Assembly: GCA_965205265.1 (NCBI GenBank)
Contig: CBDBGH010000003.1
Coordinates: forward strand, 2,464,001-2,528,000
From: Alphaproteobacteria bacterium
GTDB lineage: Bacteria; Pseudomonadota; Alphaproteobacteria; Bin95
Length of the DNA stretch: 64,000 nucleotides
Direction: 5' to 3'
Shown: piece by piece, positions 7,340 to 15,851 of the stretch
How the letters are laid out: every line of letters starts with the position of its first letter
Position numbering within the stretch: position 1 is the stretch's first letter
Position numbers and translations under genes: made by a program
The notes under the pieces: generated by a model
What the model was told of the DNA's origin: nothing
What the model saw: the letters and a program-made list of their open reading frames with translations, nothing else
Database searches by the model: none

Positions 7340-8618
7340 ATGCTGCAAAAAGGCGGAAGCAACTGGGTCGAGGGAGACCGCTTCTTCGACCGGGAGGTCG
7401 AGCTTGAGATCCTGACGGACCGCATGCGGGACGGAAATCACACCCTGGTGACCGCACAACGGCGCATGGGCAAGACGAGCCTCGTGCGGGAACTGCTGCG
7501 GCGCCTGGCGGAGGGCGGCGAATTCGAGACGGTCTTCGTCGATCTGGAAGCCGTCCTGGACCAGGCCGATACCATGGCCGAAATCACGGTTCGCGCCCGG
7601 CCTGTGAGCGGGGCATGGGGGCGGATCGAAGCCGGTTTCGTCAACATCCTGAAAGAAGTCGGCGGCCGAATCGAGGAACTGTCGGTCTCCGACCTGAAAG
7701 TGAAGCTGCGGGCCGGAATCGATGCCGGCAATTGGCCCCAGCGGGGCGATGCGGTCTTCGCCGCGCTCGCCGACAGCAACCGGCCGGTCGTGCTCGCCAT
7801 CGACGAACTGCCGATTCTCGTCAACCGCCTGCTCAAGGACGACAGCGGGCGAATCACGCCGGAAGGCAGGAAGGAAGCGGATGTGTTTCTGAGCTGGCTG
7901 CGCCGGAACGGGCAGGCCCATCGGGGACAGGTAACCATGATGCTGTCCGGCAGCGTCGGCCTTGAGCCGCTTCTCGAACAGGCTGGGCTGAGCGCCCACG
8001 CCAACATCTTCTCTGCCTACGACCATGAAGCCCTGGGATGAAGAGACCGCGGTATCGTGCCTGTCGGAGCTTGCCGGGAGCTACGAGGTCGGCCTGCCGC
8101 ACGGGATATGCCGGGACATGTGCCGGCGGCTCCGCTGCTGCATTCCCCACCATGTGCAGATGTATTTCGACAAGCTCCACGACCGTCTCAGGCACGCCGG
8201 TCGGCAGGCCGCAACGGAGGAGGATGCGGAAAGGGTCTATCTGCACGAGATGTTGAGCGTCCGGGGCCAGATGGACCTTCAACACTATGAAGACCGGTTG
8301 AGGACGATACTCGGAACGGCAGGCTATCCGGTCGCCATGGAGATACTGACCGCAACCGCTGTCGGCGGCCTTCTGGACGGCGATGCCGTTGGCCGTTACC
8401 GGGCGCATTTCGCGGCCGGGGCCGGGGATATCGAACCGGGCGGTCCGTCGGTCGGGGATGTGCTGCACGTCCTGCTCCATGACGGCTATCCGGAGCCGCA
8501 GGACGGCGGCTACCGGTTCAGGTCGGGTCTTCTCGAGGACTGGTGGCGGAACCGCTGGGGCGGAAGCTTCCGGCCCGTCATCGACGACGGGCGGCGGAGC
8601 GGGGGAGCGGGCCGATGA
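7340..8618 (+). pseudogene. P-loop ATPase (STAND-like, likely wHTH) split by a +1 frameshift near 8025
   Basis: FFDREVEL, Walker A AQRRMGKTS, Walker B VLAIDELP, LSGSVGL; deleting A8025 gives continuous YDLKPWDEE joining ORFs 7340-8041 and 8025-8618. Confidence 0.75.
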
Positions 8619-11600
8619 CCGCCAGGAAATACAATCCGGGGTTCCTGTCCGACGACGAACTCGTCGCGACCTTCTGCGTGCGGACCCGGGAATTCGCCTC
8701 GATCGTCGAAACGCTCGGGGAATGCGACGGAAACTCGAACACGCACCAGATCGTCATCGGGCCGCGCGGCAGCGGCAAGACGAGCCTGCTGTTGCGGGTC
8801 GCGGCCGAGATAGACCGGGATGCCGGGCTCGCCTCGCGCTTCTTCCCGGTGGTCTTCGCGGAGGAGAGCTACGAAGTCTCGACTGTCGGGGAGTTCTGGC
8901 TCGAATGCCTATCGCGTCTGGCCGACCGGGCGCCGCAGCGCGAAGACGGTCCCGATCTGCGGCGCAGTTTCGAGGAACTGCGGGCCGTCCGGGACGACCG
9001 GGCGCTCGGGGACCGTTGCCTCGGCGCCCTGCAGGACTTCGCAGACCGTGAAGGCAAGCGCCTGGTGCTGTTCGTCGAGAACCTGAACATGATGTTCCGG
9101 GACATGGCGGACAAAGATGCCGGATGGAAGCTGCGCCACACGCTCCAGACCGAGCCGCGGATTGTCCTGCTGGCGAGCGCAACCAGCCGGTTCGACGAGA
9201 TGGACAGCCCGGACAAGGCCTTCTACGACCTCTTCCGGGTGCTGTTCCTGCGTCCTCTGGATACCGGCGACTGCGCGACCCTCTGGCAGCAGGTCTCGGG
9301 CCAGAGCCGGGCGCCGCAGACAATCCAGGCGTTGCGGATTCTCACCGGCGGCAGCCCCCGGCTTCTGACCATCGTGGCCCGTTTCGGGGCGAAGCTCTCG
9401 TTCCGCGAACTGATGGCCGACCTCCTGAACCTCGTGGATGACCATACCGAGTATTTCAAGAGCCACCTCGATGCGCTTCCCGCCCAGGAACGCCGTGTCT
9501 ATCTGGCCCTCGCTGCGTTATGGAAACCTGCGACTGCTCGCGAAATCGCTGACCGGGCGCGACTCGACACCAGCAAATGCAGCGCGCAACTCGCGCGACT
9601 GATCGATCGCGGCGCAGTCGAGACAACGGGCGGCAGCCCGCGGCGCAAGTTCTATTACCTCGCCGAGCGGCTCTACAACATCTACTACCTGATGCGCCGC
9701 GCCCGGGGACCCGCACCCCTGATCGAAGCGCTGGTCCGCTTCATGGAGGGATACTACTCGGCGGATGAGTTGAAGGAGTTCGGGGCCCGGATTGCGAGGG
9801 AGGCGCTGGAAACCGACGGCAAGGACCTGCCGCATTACCGGACCGCATTCCAGCAACTGGTCCGACTCCCGTCCCTGTCAGCGTACCGCGACGAATTGTT
9901 GTCGCTGACGCCGGCTGCGTTTGGCTTCGGCGAAGAGGGAAGCGGTTATTCCGCCGCGGACGGGCGTCCGGTATCGGCAAGGGAGCTTTTCGAGAACGGC
10001 CATGCCCTGGCCGAGGGCGGACGACTAAAGGAAGCTGTTGCGGCGTGGAAAGACCTCGTCCGCCGTTTCGGGGAAAGCGAAGCGGTGGACGACCGCAATC
10101 GGGTCTCGCTGGCGCTCGTAAATATGGGGACGGCGCTCGGGCGCCTGAACCGTTTCGAAGAGGCCCTTGCGGCCTGGGACGATGTTGTGCGGCGCTTCGG
10201 GGGAAACCGGGAACCTGCAATTCCTAATGCTGTCGCCACGGCCCTGCTAAAAACAGCGTTCCTGCACACCGAGGAGAACCGCCCGCTGGAAGCGCTGGCC
10301 GCATGCGACGAAGTCCTGCTGCGCTTTCGGGAGACGCGGATCGAGTCGCTTCAAAGTCTGCTCGCGAATGCGCTGATCGGCAAGACTGTTGCGCTTATGG
10401 CGTTGAACCGGCCGAACGAGGCTTTGGCCGCCTGCGACGAACTTTTGGGGCGTTTCGGCGCAAGCGCAGCGCCCGAATTCCTCGGCAGCATCGCCGCGGC
10501 CATGGCCGGTAGAGGCTCCGCCCTTCTCGCCCTTGGCCGTCTCGACGCAGCCGCGGCTGCATGGAGCCGGGTGGCGGAGCACTTCGGAAGCAGCGAGATT
10601 CCGGAAGCCATCGACCATGTTGCCATGGCGCTCGGCAACAAGGCGTCCGCTCTTGCCGGGCTCGGTCGCCCTGAAGAAGCGCTCGCCATATGCGAAGAGG
10701 TCCTGCACCGCTATACGGATGACCGTCGGCCGACACGGCGGGAACCGACCGCCGCCGCCTTGCTCCACAAGGGCAACGCCCTCGGTCTGTTGGGCCGCCA
10801 AGAGGAAGCGCTCGCCGCATGGAGTGAGTGCGCACAGCGCTTCGGTTCCGAACCGAACGAGCAAGTGCCGGTGGCATTGGCGCTGATGAGCACGGGCATG
10901 ACGCTGCTTCAAACAGACCGACCGGAAGAAGCATTGCCTGTCTGGGGCGACATCGTCCAACGCTTCGGAACGAGCGATCAGCCCCAGATACGTGCGGTTA
11001 TCGTCAAAGCTTTCACTCAAATGGGCACCTTGCTGGAGCACTTGGCCCGGCATGAGGAGGCTCTCGCCGTTTGGGAGGATGCCGAGCAGCGCTACGGAAC
11101 CGGAGTAGAGCCGGAATTTCTGGAACTGGTTGCCGGCTCTCTAGTCAACAGGGGCGCCACCCTCATCGAACTGGGCCGACTGGAGGAGGCGCTGGCGGTA
11201 TTCGACCGGGCGGTGCACCAATTCGAAACGAGCGAAGCGCCGGAGATCGTTTATTCCGTTGCAGCCGCTCTGCACAACAAGGGTTCTGTGCTCAACATGC
11301 TGAACCGGGCGGAAGAGGCGGTTGCGGTCTGGAATGAATTGATAAGCCGGTATGGCAACAGCAACGAGCCTTCAATCCTCAAGCAAGTTGCGGGTGCGGT
11401 TGTCGGCAAAGGTGCCGCGCTAGCCGGCATGGGTCGAATGGAAGAAGCGCTTACGGCCTGCGACGAGGTTCTCCATCGCTTCGGAGCGGACGCCGGACCG
11501 ACATATATCGAGGAGATGTGGACGGCTCTTTCCAACAAGATTACCGTTCTCGCCTTCCTGAACCGTCCGGAGGAGGCGCTGGCAGTCTGCGAGGAAGGTG

Positions 11601-12217
11601 TCCGGCGCTTTGAGGCCGGCACCGACACCGCAGCAGCGAACGCAATCGCCGCTTGCTTCGCGAAGAAAGGCGACCTGCTTGCCCAATTGGACAGGACCGA
11701 TGAGGCGGTCGCGGCCTGGAAGGAGGCGGTGCGGCGCTTTGGGGCCAGCGACGCGCCGGCGCTGCGCCAAACCGCCGATACGGCCCTGATCGGACTCGCC
11801 GGGCATGAGTTGAAGCAGGGGAACGCCGGGGCGGCCGTGGAGGCCGCAGACCGGGTTCTGCAACATGAGAAAGGAACGCCGGACAGCCGGTGGCGCGCCC
11901 TCTTCGTCCGCGCCTTGGCCCATCTTAAGGAAGGAGACAGAGCCGCATGCGCCCTCGACATCGAGGCGGGACTGGAGGTCCTTCCCGGCCTCGACATTCT
12001 CCCGAAGGATGCCCTGGACGCCCTGTCGGACATCGCTCTGGTATTCGGCCTGGCCGAAACGGGCGATCTCATCCGCAAGTCGCCAGCCTCCGACCTGCTG
12101 CTTCCCCTGACAACGGCCTTTGAGTTGGAACTGGGCCTGGAGCCGCGCGTGGCGAAGGAAGTCGAGGAAGTTGCCGAAGACATCCGGCGGGATTTGCGGG
12201 AGCGGCAAGGAAATTGA
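8615..12217 (+). CDS. STAND-type NTPase with wHTH and a long TPR-like repeat array (~1200 aa)
   Basis: Walker A GPRGSGKT, atypical Walker B LFVENL, TGGSPRL, wHTH (AREIADRARL), then many ~44-aa EEALAxxDEVxxRFG...ALxNKG repeats; ATGA coupled to upstream ORF. Confidence 0.88.
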   Translation: MTARKYNPGFLSDDELVATFCVRTREFASIVETLGECDGNSNTHQIVIGPRGSGKTSLLLRVAAEIDRDAGLASRFFPVVFAEESYEVSTVGEFWLECLSRLADRAPQREDGPDLRRSFEELRAVRDDRALGDRCLGALQDFADREGKRLVLFVENLNMMFRDMADKDAGWKLRHTLQTEPRIVLLASATSRFDEMDSPDKAFYDLFRVLFLRPLDTGDCATLWQQVSGQSRAPQTIQALRILTGGSPRLLTIVARFGAKLSFRELMADLLNLVDDHTEYFKSHLDALPAQERRVYLALAALWKPATAREIADRARLDTSKCSAQLARLIDRGAVETTGGSPRRKFYYLAERLYNIYYLMRRARGPAPLIEALVRFMEGYYSADELKEFGARIAREALETDGKDLPHYRTAFQQLVRLPSLSAYRDELLSLTPAAFGFGEEGSGYSAADGRPVSARELFENGHALAEGGRLKEAVAAWKDLVRRFGESEAVDDRNRVSLALVNMGTALGRLNRFEEALAAWDDVVRRFGGNREPAIPNAVATALLKTAFLHTEENRPLEALAACDEVLLRFRETRIESLQSLLANALIGKTVALMALNRPNEALAACDELLGRFGASAAPEFLGSIAAAMAGRGSALLALGRLDAAAAAWSRVAEHFGSSEIPEAIDHVAMALGNKASALAGLGRPEEALAICEEVLHRYTDDRRPTRREPTAAALLHKGNALGLLGRQEEALAAWSECAQRFGSEPNEQVPVALALMSTGMTLLQTDRPEEALPVWGDIVQRFGTSDQPQIRAVIVKAFTQMGTLLEHLARHEEALAVWEDAEQRYGTGVEPEFLELVAGSLVNRGATLIELGRLEEALAVFDRAVHQFETSEAPEIVYSVAAALHNKGSVLNMLNRAEEAVAVWNELISRYGNSNEPSILKQVAGAVVGKGAALAGMGRMEEALTACDEVLHRFGADAGPTYIEEMWTALSNKITVLAFLNRPEEALAVCEEGVRRFEAGTDTAAANAIAACFAKKGDLLAQLDRTDEAVAAWKEAVRRFGASDAPALRQTADTALIGLAGHELKQGNAGAAVEAADRVLQHEKGTPDSRWRALFVRALAHLKEGDRAACALDIEAGLEVLPGLDILPKDALDALSDIALVFGLAETGDLIRKSPASDLLLPLTTAFELELGLEPRVAKEVEEVAEDIRRDLRERQGN

Positions 12218-12328
12218 GTTGCTGTCCGGCGCCCTTTCCGTCGGCAACCCCGCTTTCCGTTGTTCTCCGGCGGTGCAACATTCTGCGGGTTGGGCGGGGC
12301 GCGGCCCCTGCCACCCGGCCCGCAGGCC

Positions 12329-12357
12329 TTGCCACCGCCCCGCGGCCGCTATAGGGT
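12329..12357 (+). promoter_or_regulatory. Putative sigma70 promoter for the argD leader
   Basis: TTGCCA-N17-TAGGGT; predicted +1 falls at or just before the leader ATG at 12366. Confidence 0.5.
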
Positions 12358-12365
12358 CCGCCGCC

Positions 12366-12416
12366 ATGAGCCCACGGACCTGCATCTGCGTTTCCCGACG
12401 CCGCGCCTGCGTGTAG
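12366..12416 (+). CDS. Putative 16-aa leader peptide [16 protein letters not shown]
   Basis: Short ORF with tandem Arg codons CGA-CGC-CGC upstream of argD, embedded in alternative RNA hairpins. Confidence 0.6.
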
Positions 12417-12491
12417 GCGGTCGCGGGCTCGTTCACTAAGCACCACAATCCAGACAGCCGCGACTGCCGCCGGGAGGCGGGGTCCCTTTTG
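12394..12491 (+). promoter_or_regulatory. Putative transcription attenuator (protector / antiterminator / terminator)
   Basis: GGCGGTCGCGGGCT (12416-12429) pairs with AGCCGCGACTGCC (12456-12468), which overlaps hairpin CCGCC-GGGA-GGCGG (12467-12480) followed by TTTT. Confidence 0.6.
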
Positions 12492-12531
12492 CTGTCCTTG
12501 TCCTCGGCGCCCGAGCGGGAAGGACAGGACC

Positions 12532-13737
12532 ATGACGACACTCGCAGAGCCGCAGGCGGAAAACGCGGCGCACGACCCCTATAGGGCCCTGATGGAAATC
12601 ACCCGGCGGCCCGCCATCACCTTCACGCACGGGCGGGGCGGGCTGCTCTGGGACAGCGAGGGCAACCGCTATCTGGACTTCATCCAAGGCTGGGCGGTGA
12701 ACTGCCTCGGGCATAGCCCCCCGGCCGTCGCCCGCGCGCTGGCGGAGCAGTCGGCCCGGCTGCTCAACTGCAGCCCCGCCTATTACAGCGAGCCGATGAT
12801 GCGCTATGCGAATGCGCTGACGGCGGCGGCGGGCCTGGAGCGGGTCTTCTTCGCCAATAGCGGCGCGGAGGCGAATGAGGGCGCCATAAAGCTCGCGCGG
12901 AAATGGGGCGCGAAGCACCGCGGCGGCACCTATGAGATCGTCACCACCGTCGGCGGCTTCCACGGCCGGACGCTCGCCACCATGTCCGCATCGGGCAAGG
13001 CGGGCTGGGACGGGCTGTTCGAACCGAAGGTGGCCGGGTTCCCGAAAGTGCCGTTGAACGACCTGGCGGCCGTCGAGGCCGCGGTCGGGGACCGGACCGC
13101 CGCCGTCATGCTGGAGCCGATCCAGGGCGAGTCCGGCGTGTGGCCCGCGGATGACGGCTATCTGAGGTCCCTGCGCGCCCTGGCCGACCGGCGGGGCATC
13201 CTGCTGATCCTCGACGAGATCCAGACCGGCATGGGCCGGACCGGAAGCCTGTTCTGCTTCGAGCATGCCGGCGTCCGCCCGGACATCGTGACGCTCGGCA
13301 AGGGGATCGGGGCCGGAACTCCTCTCGCGGCGCTGCTCGCGCGCGAGGAAGTCTGCTGTTTCGAGCCGGGCGACCAGGGCGGCACCTATAACGGCAATGC
13401 GCTGATGGCCGCGGTCGGCCATGCGGTGCTCGAAGAGCTCACTGCGGACGGCTTCCTCGAGCGCGTCTGCGAGGCCGGGGCGGCGCTGCGGCGCGGCTTG
13501 GAGAGCCTCAGCGGGAAATACGGCCTCGGCGGCGTGCGCGGCAGGGGGCTGCTGCTTGCCCTCGACCTGACGCCGCGTTCCGACGGGTTCGCCCTCGTCG
13601 AGAAGGCGCTGGCGAAGGGACTGCTGCTCAACGCCCCCGCCCCCGACGCGCTCCGCTTCGTGCCGGCGCTCAACGTTACCGATGCGGAAATCGCCGAGAT
13701 GCTGGATGTGCTGGACGGCTTGCTGGAAGGCCGGTAG
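12532..13737 (+). CDS. argD: Acetylornithine aminotransferase (class III PLP)
   Basis: [61 protein letters not shown]. Confidence 0.9.
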
Positions 13738-13826
13738 CCGGCGGTGCGGCGGGTGCGGCGGCAGAGGCGGCAAGACAAACAGTTCGCTTATTCGCTTCAC
13801 CGCTGCGATTGCCTTTGCTAACCTAG

Positions 13827-14013
13827 ACTTCCTCTTAGCTGGGTGCTCTCGAATGACTCGACTTGAGGTCACTCTATGCCGGGTGTTTAGCCAGGCTGCA
13901 TGCAATTGCGCGAGTTTGGGCGCCGACTTGGCCGAGCCAAGGCGCACCCGGCTCCGCTCGGGCCCGCCTTGGCTCGGCCAAGTCGGCTTCGCTAGGTAAG
14001 AGGCAGAGGAAGT
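13827..14013 (+). ncRNA. Retron msr-msd non-coding RNA
   Basis: a1 ACTTCCTCTTA then G13838 (TTAG branch context); a2 TAAGAGG..AAGT at 13997-14013; perfect 23-bp msd stem 13922-13944 / 13965-13987; small msr hairpin 13854-13871; directly upstream of effector and RT. Confidence 0.85.
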
Positions 14014-14926
14014 GGACCATCCGCTTCTCAGCGCGGACCAAGCCGCGCTACGCCGGCGGTTGGTCCACTTCCTCAAAACTGCCCTTTCTGTCCAGCGCTC
14101 CAGCAATATCATATTTTTGTGTGGGGGCACCAACTCCAACGATTTGCGAATGACCTTTAAGGAGTACTGCCAAAACCATCTACAAGAATATCAAATTTTT
14201 CTGCCTGAGGCAGCTATGACGCCCCTCTTCTCTGACGACCTACAAGAACCTTTTGATCTCACAGATTTTGAGGTCCTTGTTGGCCGAATATCGCTAGCCA
14301 TCGTTCTCTTTCCTGAAGCCGCTGGCTCCTATGCTGAAACCGGTTATTTTTCTGCAATTCCAGCTCTCGCTCAAAAATGCATCCTTGTTTTGGATCGAAA
14401 ATACCAATCTGACGACAGCTTCTTGTCACTTGGCCCTGCAAAAAAAATCTCCGAACAGTCGATCTTTCATCCGAACATCACTCTCGATTACTGTCAACCA
14501 GACTTTGAAACAATAACCACCAGACTACGTTCTCGAAAACTTTCTAAGAAACGTAAATCTTTGCAAATTGACAAATTTTCTGATTTGTCCGAATACGAAA
14601 TCATTGTTGTGTTAGATATGATTGTAAGGCTTTGTAAAATTGCAACTCTATCAGATATAAATTACTTGCTAGCCGCGATTTTCAAAAATAGATTTTCACA
14701 ATCAAAAATTCAGAAACTTTTGTCGATTTTAGTTGGCTCAAATTATCTTCAAGAGATTGGTCCATATGGTCACTTTACCAGTGGTAACGACAAGCTATCT
14801 CTCGCGATTGTTCGGGAAGGTTTCAAAAATGACGAACAAGAATTGCGATTGTCATTAACAACAATTTGCCAAAAGGCAGAGCCGGATTTTGTGAATCTAA
14901 TTAGGGCACCGACCTATGTTGATTGA
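14012..14926 (+). CDS. Retron effector, nucleoside deoxyribosyltransferase-like (Ec73/St85 type) with probable C-terminal wHTH
   Basis: IIFLCGG, DLTDFE, IVLFPEAAGSYAETGYF, SFLSLGP; low GC; overlaps RT start. Confidence 0.85.
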   Translation: MDHPLLSADQAALRRRLVHFLKTALSVQRSSNIIFLCGGTNSNDLRMTFKEYCQNHLQEYQIFLPEAAMTPLFSDDLQEPFDLTDFEVLVGRISLAIVLFPEAAGSYAETGYFSAIPALAQKCILVLDRKYQSDDSFLSLGPAKKISEQSIFHPNITLDYCQPDFETITTRLRSRKLSKKRKSLQIDKFSDLSEYEIIVVLDMIVRLCKIATLSDINYLLAAIFKNRFSQSKIQKLLSILVGSNYLQEIGPYGHFTSGNDKLSLAIVREGFKNDEQELRLSLTTICQKAEPDFVNLIRAPTYVD

Positions 14927-15851
14927 AGATCTTCAAATTCAGTCAGGACTTTCACGCCAGCAATTACTCTATCTGTCCAACACGGCATCAAAGAGATATA
15001 AATCTTATACGATTCAGAAACGCAATGGAGGATCGCGAACGATTCACCATCCTAGTAGGACGCTAAAGGCAATTCAGCGATGGCTTAATTTGGTTCTAAT
15101 TTCTAACCTGCCAGTACATGATAGCGCAACTGCATACAGGAAAGGACAAAGCATTCGATCGAATGCCATGATGCATGCGAAAACACGGTTCACATTGCGA
15201 ATGGACTTCAGAGAATTTTTTCCATCCTTTTGCGTCCATCATGTCCGAGAATTTATCGAAAGGAAAGGATCGGAAATCGGTTGGGAATTAAGTGACGATG
15301 ATTTAGAATTTGTAGCGAAAATAAGTACCAGATTTGATTTTTTAACTATAGGAGCCCCATCATCACCGACCTTGACTAATGCGATGATGTATGGATTTGA
15401 TTATCGTGTGTCGGATTGGGCAGATGCAGAAGGATTGATTTATACTCGATACGCTGATGATCTGTTTATTTCGTCTCGAAGACCTAACAAATTAGCGGCA
15501 GCGCGGGATAGAATATTGGAAGAAAGTGCACAATTTAAATACGCAAAACTAATCATAAATGACAAGAAAACAGCATACTTGTCGCGGCGATATCGACGAA
15601 CAATTACTGGCTTGGTTGTAACACCGGGGGAGCGAGTATCCATTGGACGGGGACGTAAGCGCGAAATAAAAAGTATGGTTCACAGGTTTATGGCAGGGTC
15701 GATGACAATCGGAGAAATAGACAAGTTGCGCGGACTAGTCGGGTATTCTAAGGGAGTGGAACCAAGCTTTTATGATTCTGTTTGTGTCAAGTATGGGAAA
15801 TCGGTGTTAGAGAAGGTGCTCAAGGGAGATTTGGAGGCGAAGCGCGTTTAG
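14916..15851 (+). CDS. Retron reverse transcriptase
   Basis: NAMMH (retron NAxxH), MDFREFFPS, GAPSSPTLTN, YTRYADDL, ITGLVV (VTG-like); 311 aa with no maturase domain. Confidence 0.93.
   Translation: MLIEDLQIQSGLSRQQLLYLSNTASKRYKSYTIQKRNGGSRTIHHPSRTLKAIQRWLNLVLISNLPVHDSATAYRKGQSIRSNAMMHAKTRFTLRMDFREFFPSFCVHHVREFIERKGSEIGWELSDDDLEFVAKISTRFDFLTIGAPSSPTLTNAMMYGFDYRVSDWADAEGLIYTRYADDLFISSRRPNKLAAARDRILEESAQFKYAKLIINDKKTAYLSRRYRRTITGLVVTPGERVSIGRGRKREIKSMVHRFMAGSMTIGEIDKLRGLVGYSKGVEPSFYDSVCVKYGKSVLEKVLKGDLEAKRV

Follow-up and report, generated by a model that had tools for sequence, protein, structure and literature searches.

The locus upstream of argD

The window, by which we mean the whole 64,000-nucleotide stretch of DNA that was analysed, carries a gene for a PRK03715-type acetylornithine transaminase, argD. 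It is the second copy in this genome; the contig carries a further argD-like gene elsewhere, next to argF. A first-pass annotation, made from the letters alone, had proposed that the short region upstream of argD is an arginine-sensing leader-peptide attenuator. The parts of the region and the gene are as follows.

12329-12334, + strand: predicted -35 box, TTGCCA, kept in 7 of 7 intact leaders of the genus
12352-12357, + strand: predicted -10 box, TAGGGT, with a 17-nt spacer from the -35 box
about 12365, + strand: predicted transcription start site, 1 nt 5' of the AUG, with the spacing of a mapped Bradyrhizobium promoter
12366-12416, + strand: putative leaderless leader ORF of 16 codons, stop codon TAG at 12414-12416
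12396-12404, + strand: Arg run CGA-CGC-CGC, the predicted sensor
12401-12426, + strand: helix 1:2 (12401-12410 with 12417-12426), -16.3 kcal/mol, predicted to form without a ribosome
12416-12468, + strand: helix 2:3 (12416-12426 with 12458-12468), the predicted ON structure, whole fold -22.8 kcal/mol
12462-12484, + strand: helix 3:4 with a GGGA loop, a weak terminator and the predicted OFF structure, -13.5 kcal/mol
12487-12490, + strand: four-U tail, following helix 3:4 and a CC
12471-12506, + strand: helix 4:5, an alternative that would hold the anti-RBS strand, -12.1 kcal/mol
12492-12527, + strand: helix 5:6 over the argD ribosome-binding site (RBS; 12520-12529), -22.9 kcal/mol
12532-13737, + strand: argD (NF002985, 585.8 bits against a cut-off of 568)

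The promoter boxes with their 17-nt spacer, the ATG at 12366, the 16-codon ORF and the Arg codons lie exactly where the first-pass annotation had placed them, and helices 1:2, 2:3 and 3:4 fold as it claimed, at the energies listed. The ATG is 8 nt past the -10 box. The proposed overlap between segment 3 and the hairpin needed amending: the 5-bp core originally described shares just 2 nt with segment 3, and the extended stem from 12462 is required for the two to exclude each other. Helix 5:6, the stronger hairpin, was absent from the earlier reading.

The genes on either side were also noted. A St85-type retron (13818-15851, + strand) follows directly after argD, and a group of ORFs precedes the leader (7340-12217, + strand).

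7340-8041 and 8025-8618, + strand: split ATPase-like ORFs
8543-12217, + strand: 1224-aa AAA-ATPase/HTH/TPR protein, STAND-like, after the split ATPase-like ORFs
13818-13840 and 13992-14013: retron inverted repeats
13922-13987: 29-bp hairpin, with the repeats as expected for msr-msd RNA
14012-14926, + strand: retron effector, over its NCBIfam cut-off
14916-15851, + strand: retron reverse transcriptase, over its NCBIfam cut-off

Taken by itself the locus is statistically unremarkable and makes a weak case. A consensus scanner finds no promoter there (0 found), the terminator scan of the window, which the tail of helix 3:4 passes, returns 1 site against 0.4 expected by chance, the folding z-score of the whole leader (-0.97) is not unusual, and Rfam has no match to positions 11800-12800 at E values up to 1. 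Such single-locus numbers would fit a chance ORF with hairpins in G+C-rich DNA, but this reading is scarcely credible in view of the family-wide controls described below and of RNA ends mapped in two homologues. We regard the leader as more than chance because it is conserved among relatives.

Within the genus, PRK03715-type argD occurs in 9 of 17 genomes, and it is found in 0 of 20 genomes of two other genera. Eight of the genus copies have upstream DNA, and seven of these keep the leader. In the eighth, L003 (genome G005), unrelated DNA that is possibly an insertion sequence stands in place of the promoter, the leader ORF and segment 2, and helices 3:4 and 5:6 are retained, a natural leader deletion. 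The argD match of L005 holds one TAA and L008 has a rearranged 5' end; both are possibly broken copies behind intact leaders. The DNA 5' of the promoter varies among the genus loci L001-L008, and at L163 a tRNA gene (L163:601-682) lies directly upstream of the leader. The leader-argD unit looks patchy and mobile. No argF gene was found downstream of argD at any of 146 loci; argD stands alone, and its biosynthetic role therefore rests on family annotation.

Conservation of the leader and its Arg codons

We collected 242 argD loci, of which 219 had enough upstream DNA to be scored and 23 were dropped as truncated; an order-level genome search for further loci added none. The motif sought was an ORF that starts with ATG, runs for 10-45 codons and has an RRR whose first residue falls within codons 6-17. 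Among the 161 loci with at least 53% identity, which we call the clade, the conservation that the first-pass annotation had called for was found, with an RRR leader ORF upstream of 103. The same 161 loci gave 9 hits on the antisense strand, 12 for AAA, 5 for SSS, 4 for PPP and 1 for GGG. The leader precedes 1 of 19 canonical argD loci and 3 of 39 distant ones. Leaders lying 130-380 nt before the anchor number 101 and form 26 sequence clusters from alpha- and betaproteobacteria, including Bradyrhizobium, Paraburkholderia, Caballeronia, Trinickia, Caldimonas and several other families; Bradyrhizobium-type loci weigh heavily in this sample (53 of 101), and kin are not independent. Sixty of the 161 clade loci were scored as lacking the strict motif. 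By eye, 18 of these show the same arrangement of promoter boxes followed by an RR variant, and many of the remainder closely follow an upstream gene. In a tree of 133 proteins, built by a quick method and with most Bradyrhizobium-type rows left out, leaders occur throughout the 117-row PRK03715 clade and in none of the 16 rows outside it.

Across clusters the leader peptides share only arginine, which makes up 180 of 587 residues in the 26 cluster representatives. In 19 of 26 clusters CGA is the first codon of the Arg run, whereas the argD genes behind these leaders use it for 17 of their 562 Arg codons. In the window's genome 3.1% of Arg codons are CGA and we found no TCG-anticodon tRNA; CGA lacking such a tRNA is read by inosine wobble, which would therefore be how it is read here. 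The three Cys codons of the window's leader, which had been offered as a possible second input, do not hold up: Cys6 is Arg in all six other intact leaders of the genus, for which reason we reject the idea. The L163 leader has no Cys, Cys contributes 17 of the 587 residues, and no conserved poly-Cys tract was seen in the genus leaders or the 26 representatives. Bradyrhizobium-type leaders use CGT or CGC in the first Arg run, and the length of their ORF changes in multiples of three. In these leaders (L031-L211) we also observed a second Arg cluster, GTC-CGA-CGA, near the end of the ORF and downstream of segment 2. A ribosome stalled at that cluster would favour termination, so that these leaders may read arginine at two points.

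The position of the start codon points to leaderless translation. In 95 of 101 leaders the AUG comes 6-9 nt past a -10 box that scores well; of the other ATGs in these regions, 24 of 669 are so placed. Where two ATGs were possible, the one with the better promoter was taken. Most leaders of the family have a TTGACA-like -35 box, and a Shine-Dalgarno-like motif precedes the AUG in 1 of 101.

Bacterial arginine biosynthesis is classically under the control of ArgR. We found ArgR (PF01316) in 1 of 59 genomes with PRK03715-type argD, the window's genome (G000) not being the one, and in 9 of 14 control genomes. Pseudomonads have an AraC-type ArgR, which falls outside the PF01316 search. An Arg-codon leader with attenuator geometry before argD, as first proposed for the window, is thus a conserved arrangement in bacteria where ArgR was not found.

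Published RNA maps bear on two homologues. The Rfam model RF02884 (BcKCsr7) spans the AUG, the Arg run and the terminator and matches the argD locus L050 with 92.6 bits against a cut-off of 59; L050 alone of seven argD loci passes, and the window's leader is not matched. In Burkholderia cenocepacia J2315 the corresponding RNA is listed under BCAL2701 (aminotransferase class III) as a short 5'UTR of 156 nt, with 194 nt from start site to coding sequence and the terminator entered as 'yes' (PMC5688073 Table S3); the sequence given there starts at the leader AUG and ends in the U tail. The leader match and the spacing suggest that BCAL2701 is a PRK03715-type argD. The same RNA is nc5U30, or Bc_KC_sr7, detected by Northern blot in strain KC-01 (PMC6321483 Table S1), and is listed as RIT34 (PMC10987360). 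In Bradyrhizobium diazoefficiens, blr4582 (argD2) has one sense start site, 5073555, given with 60 upstream bases (PMC4842269 Tables S3, S7). From published offsets (PMC10888616) and homologue spacing, we infer that it falls about 1 nt before the leader AUG. A 12-nt spacing is found in 43 of 47 homologous Bradyrhizobium promoters, and the window's promoter has the same spacing. The first-pass placement of the start site beside the ATG agrees with these homologues (at the AUG in Burkholderia, about 1 nt before it in Bradyrhizobium). Public RNA runs offer only contigs of related strains, and those of 4 of 22 runs were aligned to L135; three span both leader and gene, and one shows a gap near the terminator. 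They are not used as evidence because contigs cannot show ends.

These catalogues bear on whether the leader might serve chiefly as a small RNA acting in trans or as a constitutive terminator, its Arg codons a by-product of G+C-rich pairing. The Burkholderia RNA does accumulate and is catalogued as an sRNA (RF02884), and G+C-rich DNA abounds in Arg codons, which here are paired in helix 1:2. Yet neither the antisense strand nor equally G+C-rich triplets are enriched, the frame, the AUG position and CGA are kept across unrelated leaders, A+T-richer genomes included, and the Bradyrhizobium-type ORF changes length by whole codons. We consider this explanation very improbable.

A signal other than the supply of arginine, read by the CGA run, is less easily dismissed, though still quite improbable. 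The candidates are a general slowing of ribosomes, the inosine state of tRNA-Arg(ICG), ribosome-targeting antibiotics acting at an R-x-R motif, or a small ligand acting through the nascent peptide, as in speF. CGA is rare here and read by wobble, an Arg-Leu-Arg motif occurs in antibiotic-sensing leaders according to the accessible text of PMC8632094, and a second CGA-CGA-CGA leader, described below, stands before a GNAT gene that is not known to take part in arginine synthesis. Moreover, blr4582 is a reported PhaR target (48.9-fold), and the peak at its start site reads 93 in nodules and 8 in free-living cells (PMC4842269, PMC10888616). Against such sensing, the regulated gene encodes acetylornithine transaminase, Bradyrhizobium-type leaders use CGT and CGC in the first run, and the peptide is conserved only in its Arg residues, a pattern that speaks against a ligand acting through the peptide. 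Of the PhaR sites predicted for blr4582, one (-170) lies inside the leader ORF.

Competing helices and the output of the proposed switch

We propose that the conserved argD leader works as a ribosome-mediated arginine attenuator. Transcription would start at the AUG or 1 nt before it, and the ORF would therefore be translated leaderless. When charged tRNA-Arg is low, a ribosome would wait at CGA-CGC-CGC, covering the RNA to about 12409-12415 and leaving segment 2 (12416-12426) free to pair with segment 3. The full 3:4 hairpin could then not form, since segment 3 would be held by segment 2; the freed strand 4 could hold the anti-RBS strand, and argD would be expressed. With ample arginine the ribosome would reach the stop codon and cover segment 2, and 3:4 would form, which in most of the family would act as a U-tailed intrinsic terminator. 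Judged from sequence comparison, the leader probably works in just this way, and it is with somewhat greater probability an arginine-sensing ribosome switch with one output or the other.

In 25 of 26 clusters, 13-35 nt separate the first Arg codon from the start of segment 2, and in all 26 that start precedes stop+12. Of the 24 clusters scored, 21 have U-rich tails behind the hairpin; the hairpins of L096 and L097 were not found, those of L001 and L163 were mis-picked, and the 24-cluster scoring therefore says nothing about the window. Helix 2:3 beats shuffled sequences at p<0.05 in 9 of 26 clusters, with a mean z of -1.25. Of the covarying stems that the first-pass annotation had called for, two were found: in 45 Bradyrhizobium-type leaders helices 1:2 and 3:4 covary, with 4 two-sided pairs in 14 cells, a result reached in 0 of 500 shuffles. 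Helix 2:3 is 93% paired in these leaders and showed no covariation in the first register examined; a second register, picked after looking, yielded a single pair whose 6 two-sided cells probably go back to one event. In the window's own group of eight sequences, 97.7% of helix 2:3 cells are paired, with no two-sided change.

Equilibrium folding with a mask for the stalled ribosome leaves the terminator the winner in most clusters (mean 0.83); the hairpin is lost upon stalling in 2 of 24 clusters and the reverse is seen in 1. Since the terminator mostly wins at equilibrium even when the ribosome is stalled, control on this model must be kinetic, as would be expected of attenuators. A proxy in which we asked whether the hairpin arm was pre-paired gave 18 of 24 clusters with 0 in reverse. 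We set it aside as evidence for a switch because a longer mask can only remove partners and the outcome is partly built in.

The window's lineage departs from the rest of the family downstream of the sensor. The genus, L163 (78% ArgD identity, MSQRIINSVSRRRAFA) and L060 form one clade (support 93), in which every member has a hairpin covering the RBS, of 13 bp in L060. The U tail is short in this lineage, broken in L002 and L005, and absent in L163 and L060, the closest relatives outside the genus. It might be, then, that the lineage has kept the same sensor and that its output is purely translational or Rho-dependent, with no intrinsic termination near 12490. The tails and the retained RBS hairpin would fit this, as would helix 4:5, which joins strand 4 to the anti-RBS strand and appears in at least 8 of 9 sequences when truncated transcripts are folded with the stalled mask. 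There is also precedent in the accessible text on mycobacterial poly-Cys leaderless ORFs (10.1101/834739). Equilibrium folding speaks for it in L163 alone, where RBS opening is favoured by 3.4 kcal/mol when the ribosome is stalled. A switch at the RBS found no support in the same calculation in 7 of 8 sequences, the seven of the genus, in which opening costs 1-6 kcal/mol more when stalled; helix 4:5 is not favoured at equilibrium, and the window's own tail passes the terminator scan. We judge a purely translational or Rho-dependent output somewhat unlikely, and it would leave the sensor of the attenuator reading as it is, only the output being different. The Arg-codon sensor is well supported in the window's lineage, and the OFF state here is most likely a combination, in whatever proportion, of 3:4 acting as a weak terminator and hairpin 5:6 closing the RBS.

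A second Arg-run leader and known leader systems

A scan of the window's genome for a promoter followed by a leaderless ORF returned 36 candidates, three of them with RRR, the argD leader among these. A second lies outside the window:

G000:C3 near 4027332 (L243/L245), - strand: leader MVRWLRRRRG, with CGA-CGA-CGA

Its ORF is placed 96 nt upstream of a GNAT acetyltransferase gene, between dnaQ and a LysE-type exporter gene. By eye, an Arg-run ORF precedes the GNAT gene at 25 of 25 loci of the family, with RRK instead of RRR in two. Class-wide, in 28 of the 58 positive genomes, the leader was found at 20 of 28 loci, against 3 on the antisense strand and 0 for AAA, PPP and GGG. The GNAT leader has no Rfam match. 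We tentatively suggest, and hold it to be somewhat short of an even chance, that alpha- and betaproteobacteria without ArgR run a ribosome-read arginine regulon by means of leaderless CGA-run ORFs, comprising argD and, separately, in Alphaproteobacteria, the YhbS-like GNAT gene, and that the window's lineage has rewired its argD switch from termination to the RBS.

To our knowledge, arginine is absent from the usual list of amino acids under leader-peptide attenuation. The argD leader resembles the trpL/hisL-type attenuators in having a short ORF, a cluster of rare codons for the end product, competing 1:2, 2:3 and 3:4 helices and a terminator before the gene; the defining features of trpL, hisL, leuL, pheL, thrL and ilvL are summarised in the accessible text of PMC2836559. 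It differs from them in its use of arginine, in its leaderless ORF and in serving one stand-alone gene, and the window's lineage further adds the RBS hairpin, with a U tail that is weak or missing.

The leaderless sensor ORF is shared with the mycobacterial poly-Cys ORFs (Ms5788A class; 10.1101/834739). According to the accessible text, stalling there blocks RBS-sequestering structures, and several loci make up a ribosome-read regulon. That system concerns cysteine, Actinobacteria and control of translation only, whereas a terminator closes most argD leaders. Upstream Arg codons, tandem or rare, also confer arginine-dependent expression, according to the accessible text, in Salmonella speF orf34 (PMC6386406) and Staphylococcus aureus rbfL (PMC13009471). 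Those systems control ornithine decarboxylase and a biofilm regulator by way of Rho, RNase G and RBS occlusion, whereas the argD leader would control arginine synthesis through a terminator switch. In Escherichia coli argL-argF (10.1101/511675), expression of an arginine-synthesis gene is likewise influenced by a small ORF located at the 5' end of the gene; argL overlaps argF, blocking argL translation raises argF, and the accessible text mentions neither an Arg-run attenuator nor an arginine response. Rfam riboswitches and T-boxes, speF RF00518 included, do not match the argD leader, and the alpha-proteobacterial speF motif, as given in the accessible part of PMC1273637, matches neither the argD nor the GNAT leader.

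The first-pass annotation knew of no description of the element. This holds for the leader peptide and its link to arginine: full-text literature searches, with subscription papers mostly outside their reach, returned no Arg leader peptide on argD, and no prior description occurs in the accessible main text of PMC8632094, PMC2836559, PMC2965389 and PMC13285730. It does not hold for the RNA, the Burkholderia member of the argD-leader family being RF02884 BcKCsr7 (nc5U30, RIT34, Bc_KC_sr7). It is filed as an sRNA or short 5'UTR, with no mention of the ORF or of arginine in the accessible text of these sources; the words 'leader' and 'arginine' do not occur in the main text of PMC5688073.

The class of mechanism is a textbook one, and the surprise lies in its specificity and spread, not in its kind. 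The family would add arginine to the attenuated pathways, in bacteria where ArgR was not found, would give RF02884, catalogued as a Burkholderia sRNA, a new reading as an attenuated leader, and would add a leaderless attenuator in Proteobacteria. If the wider regulon is real, the GNAT enzyme would be tied to arginine or polyamine metabolism.
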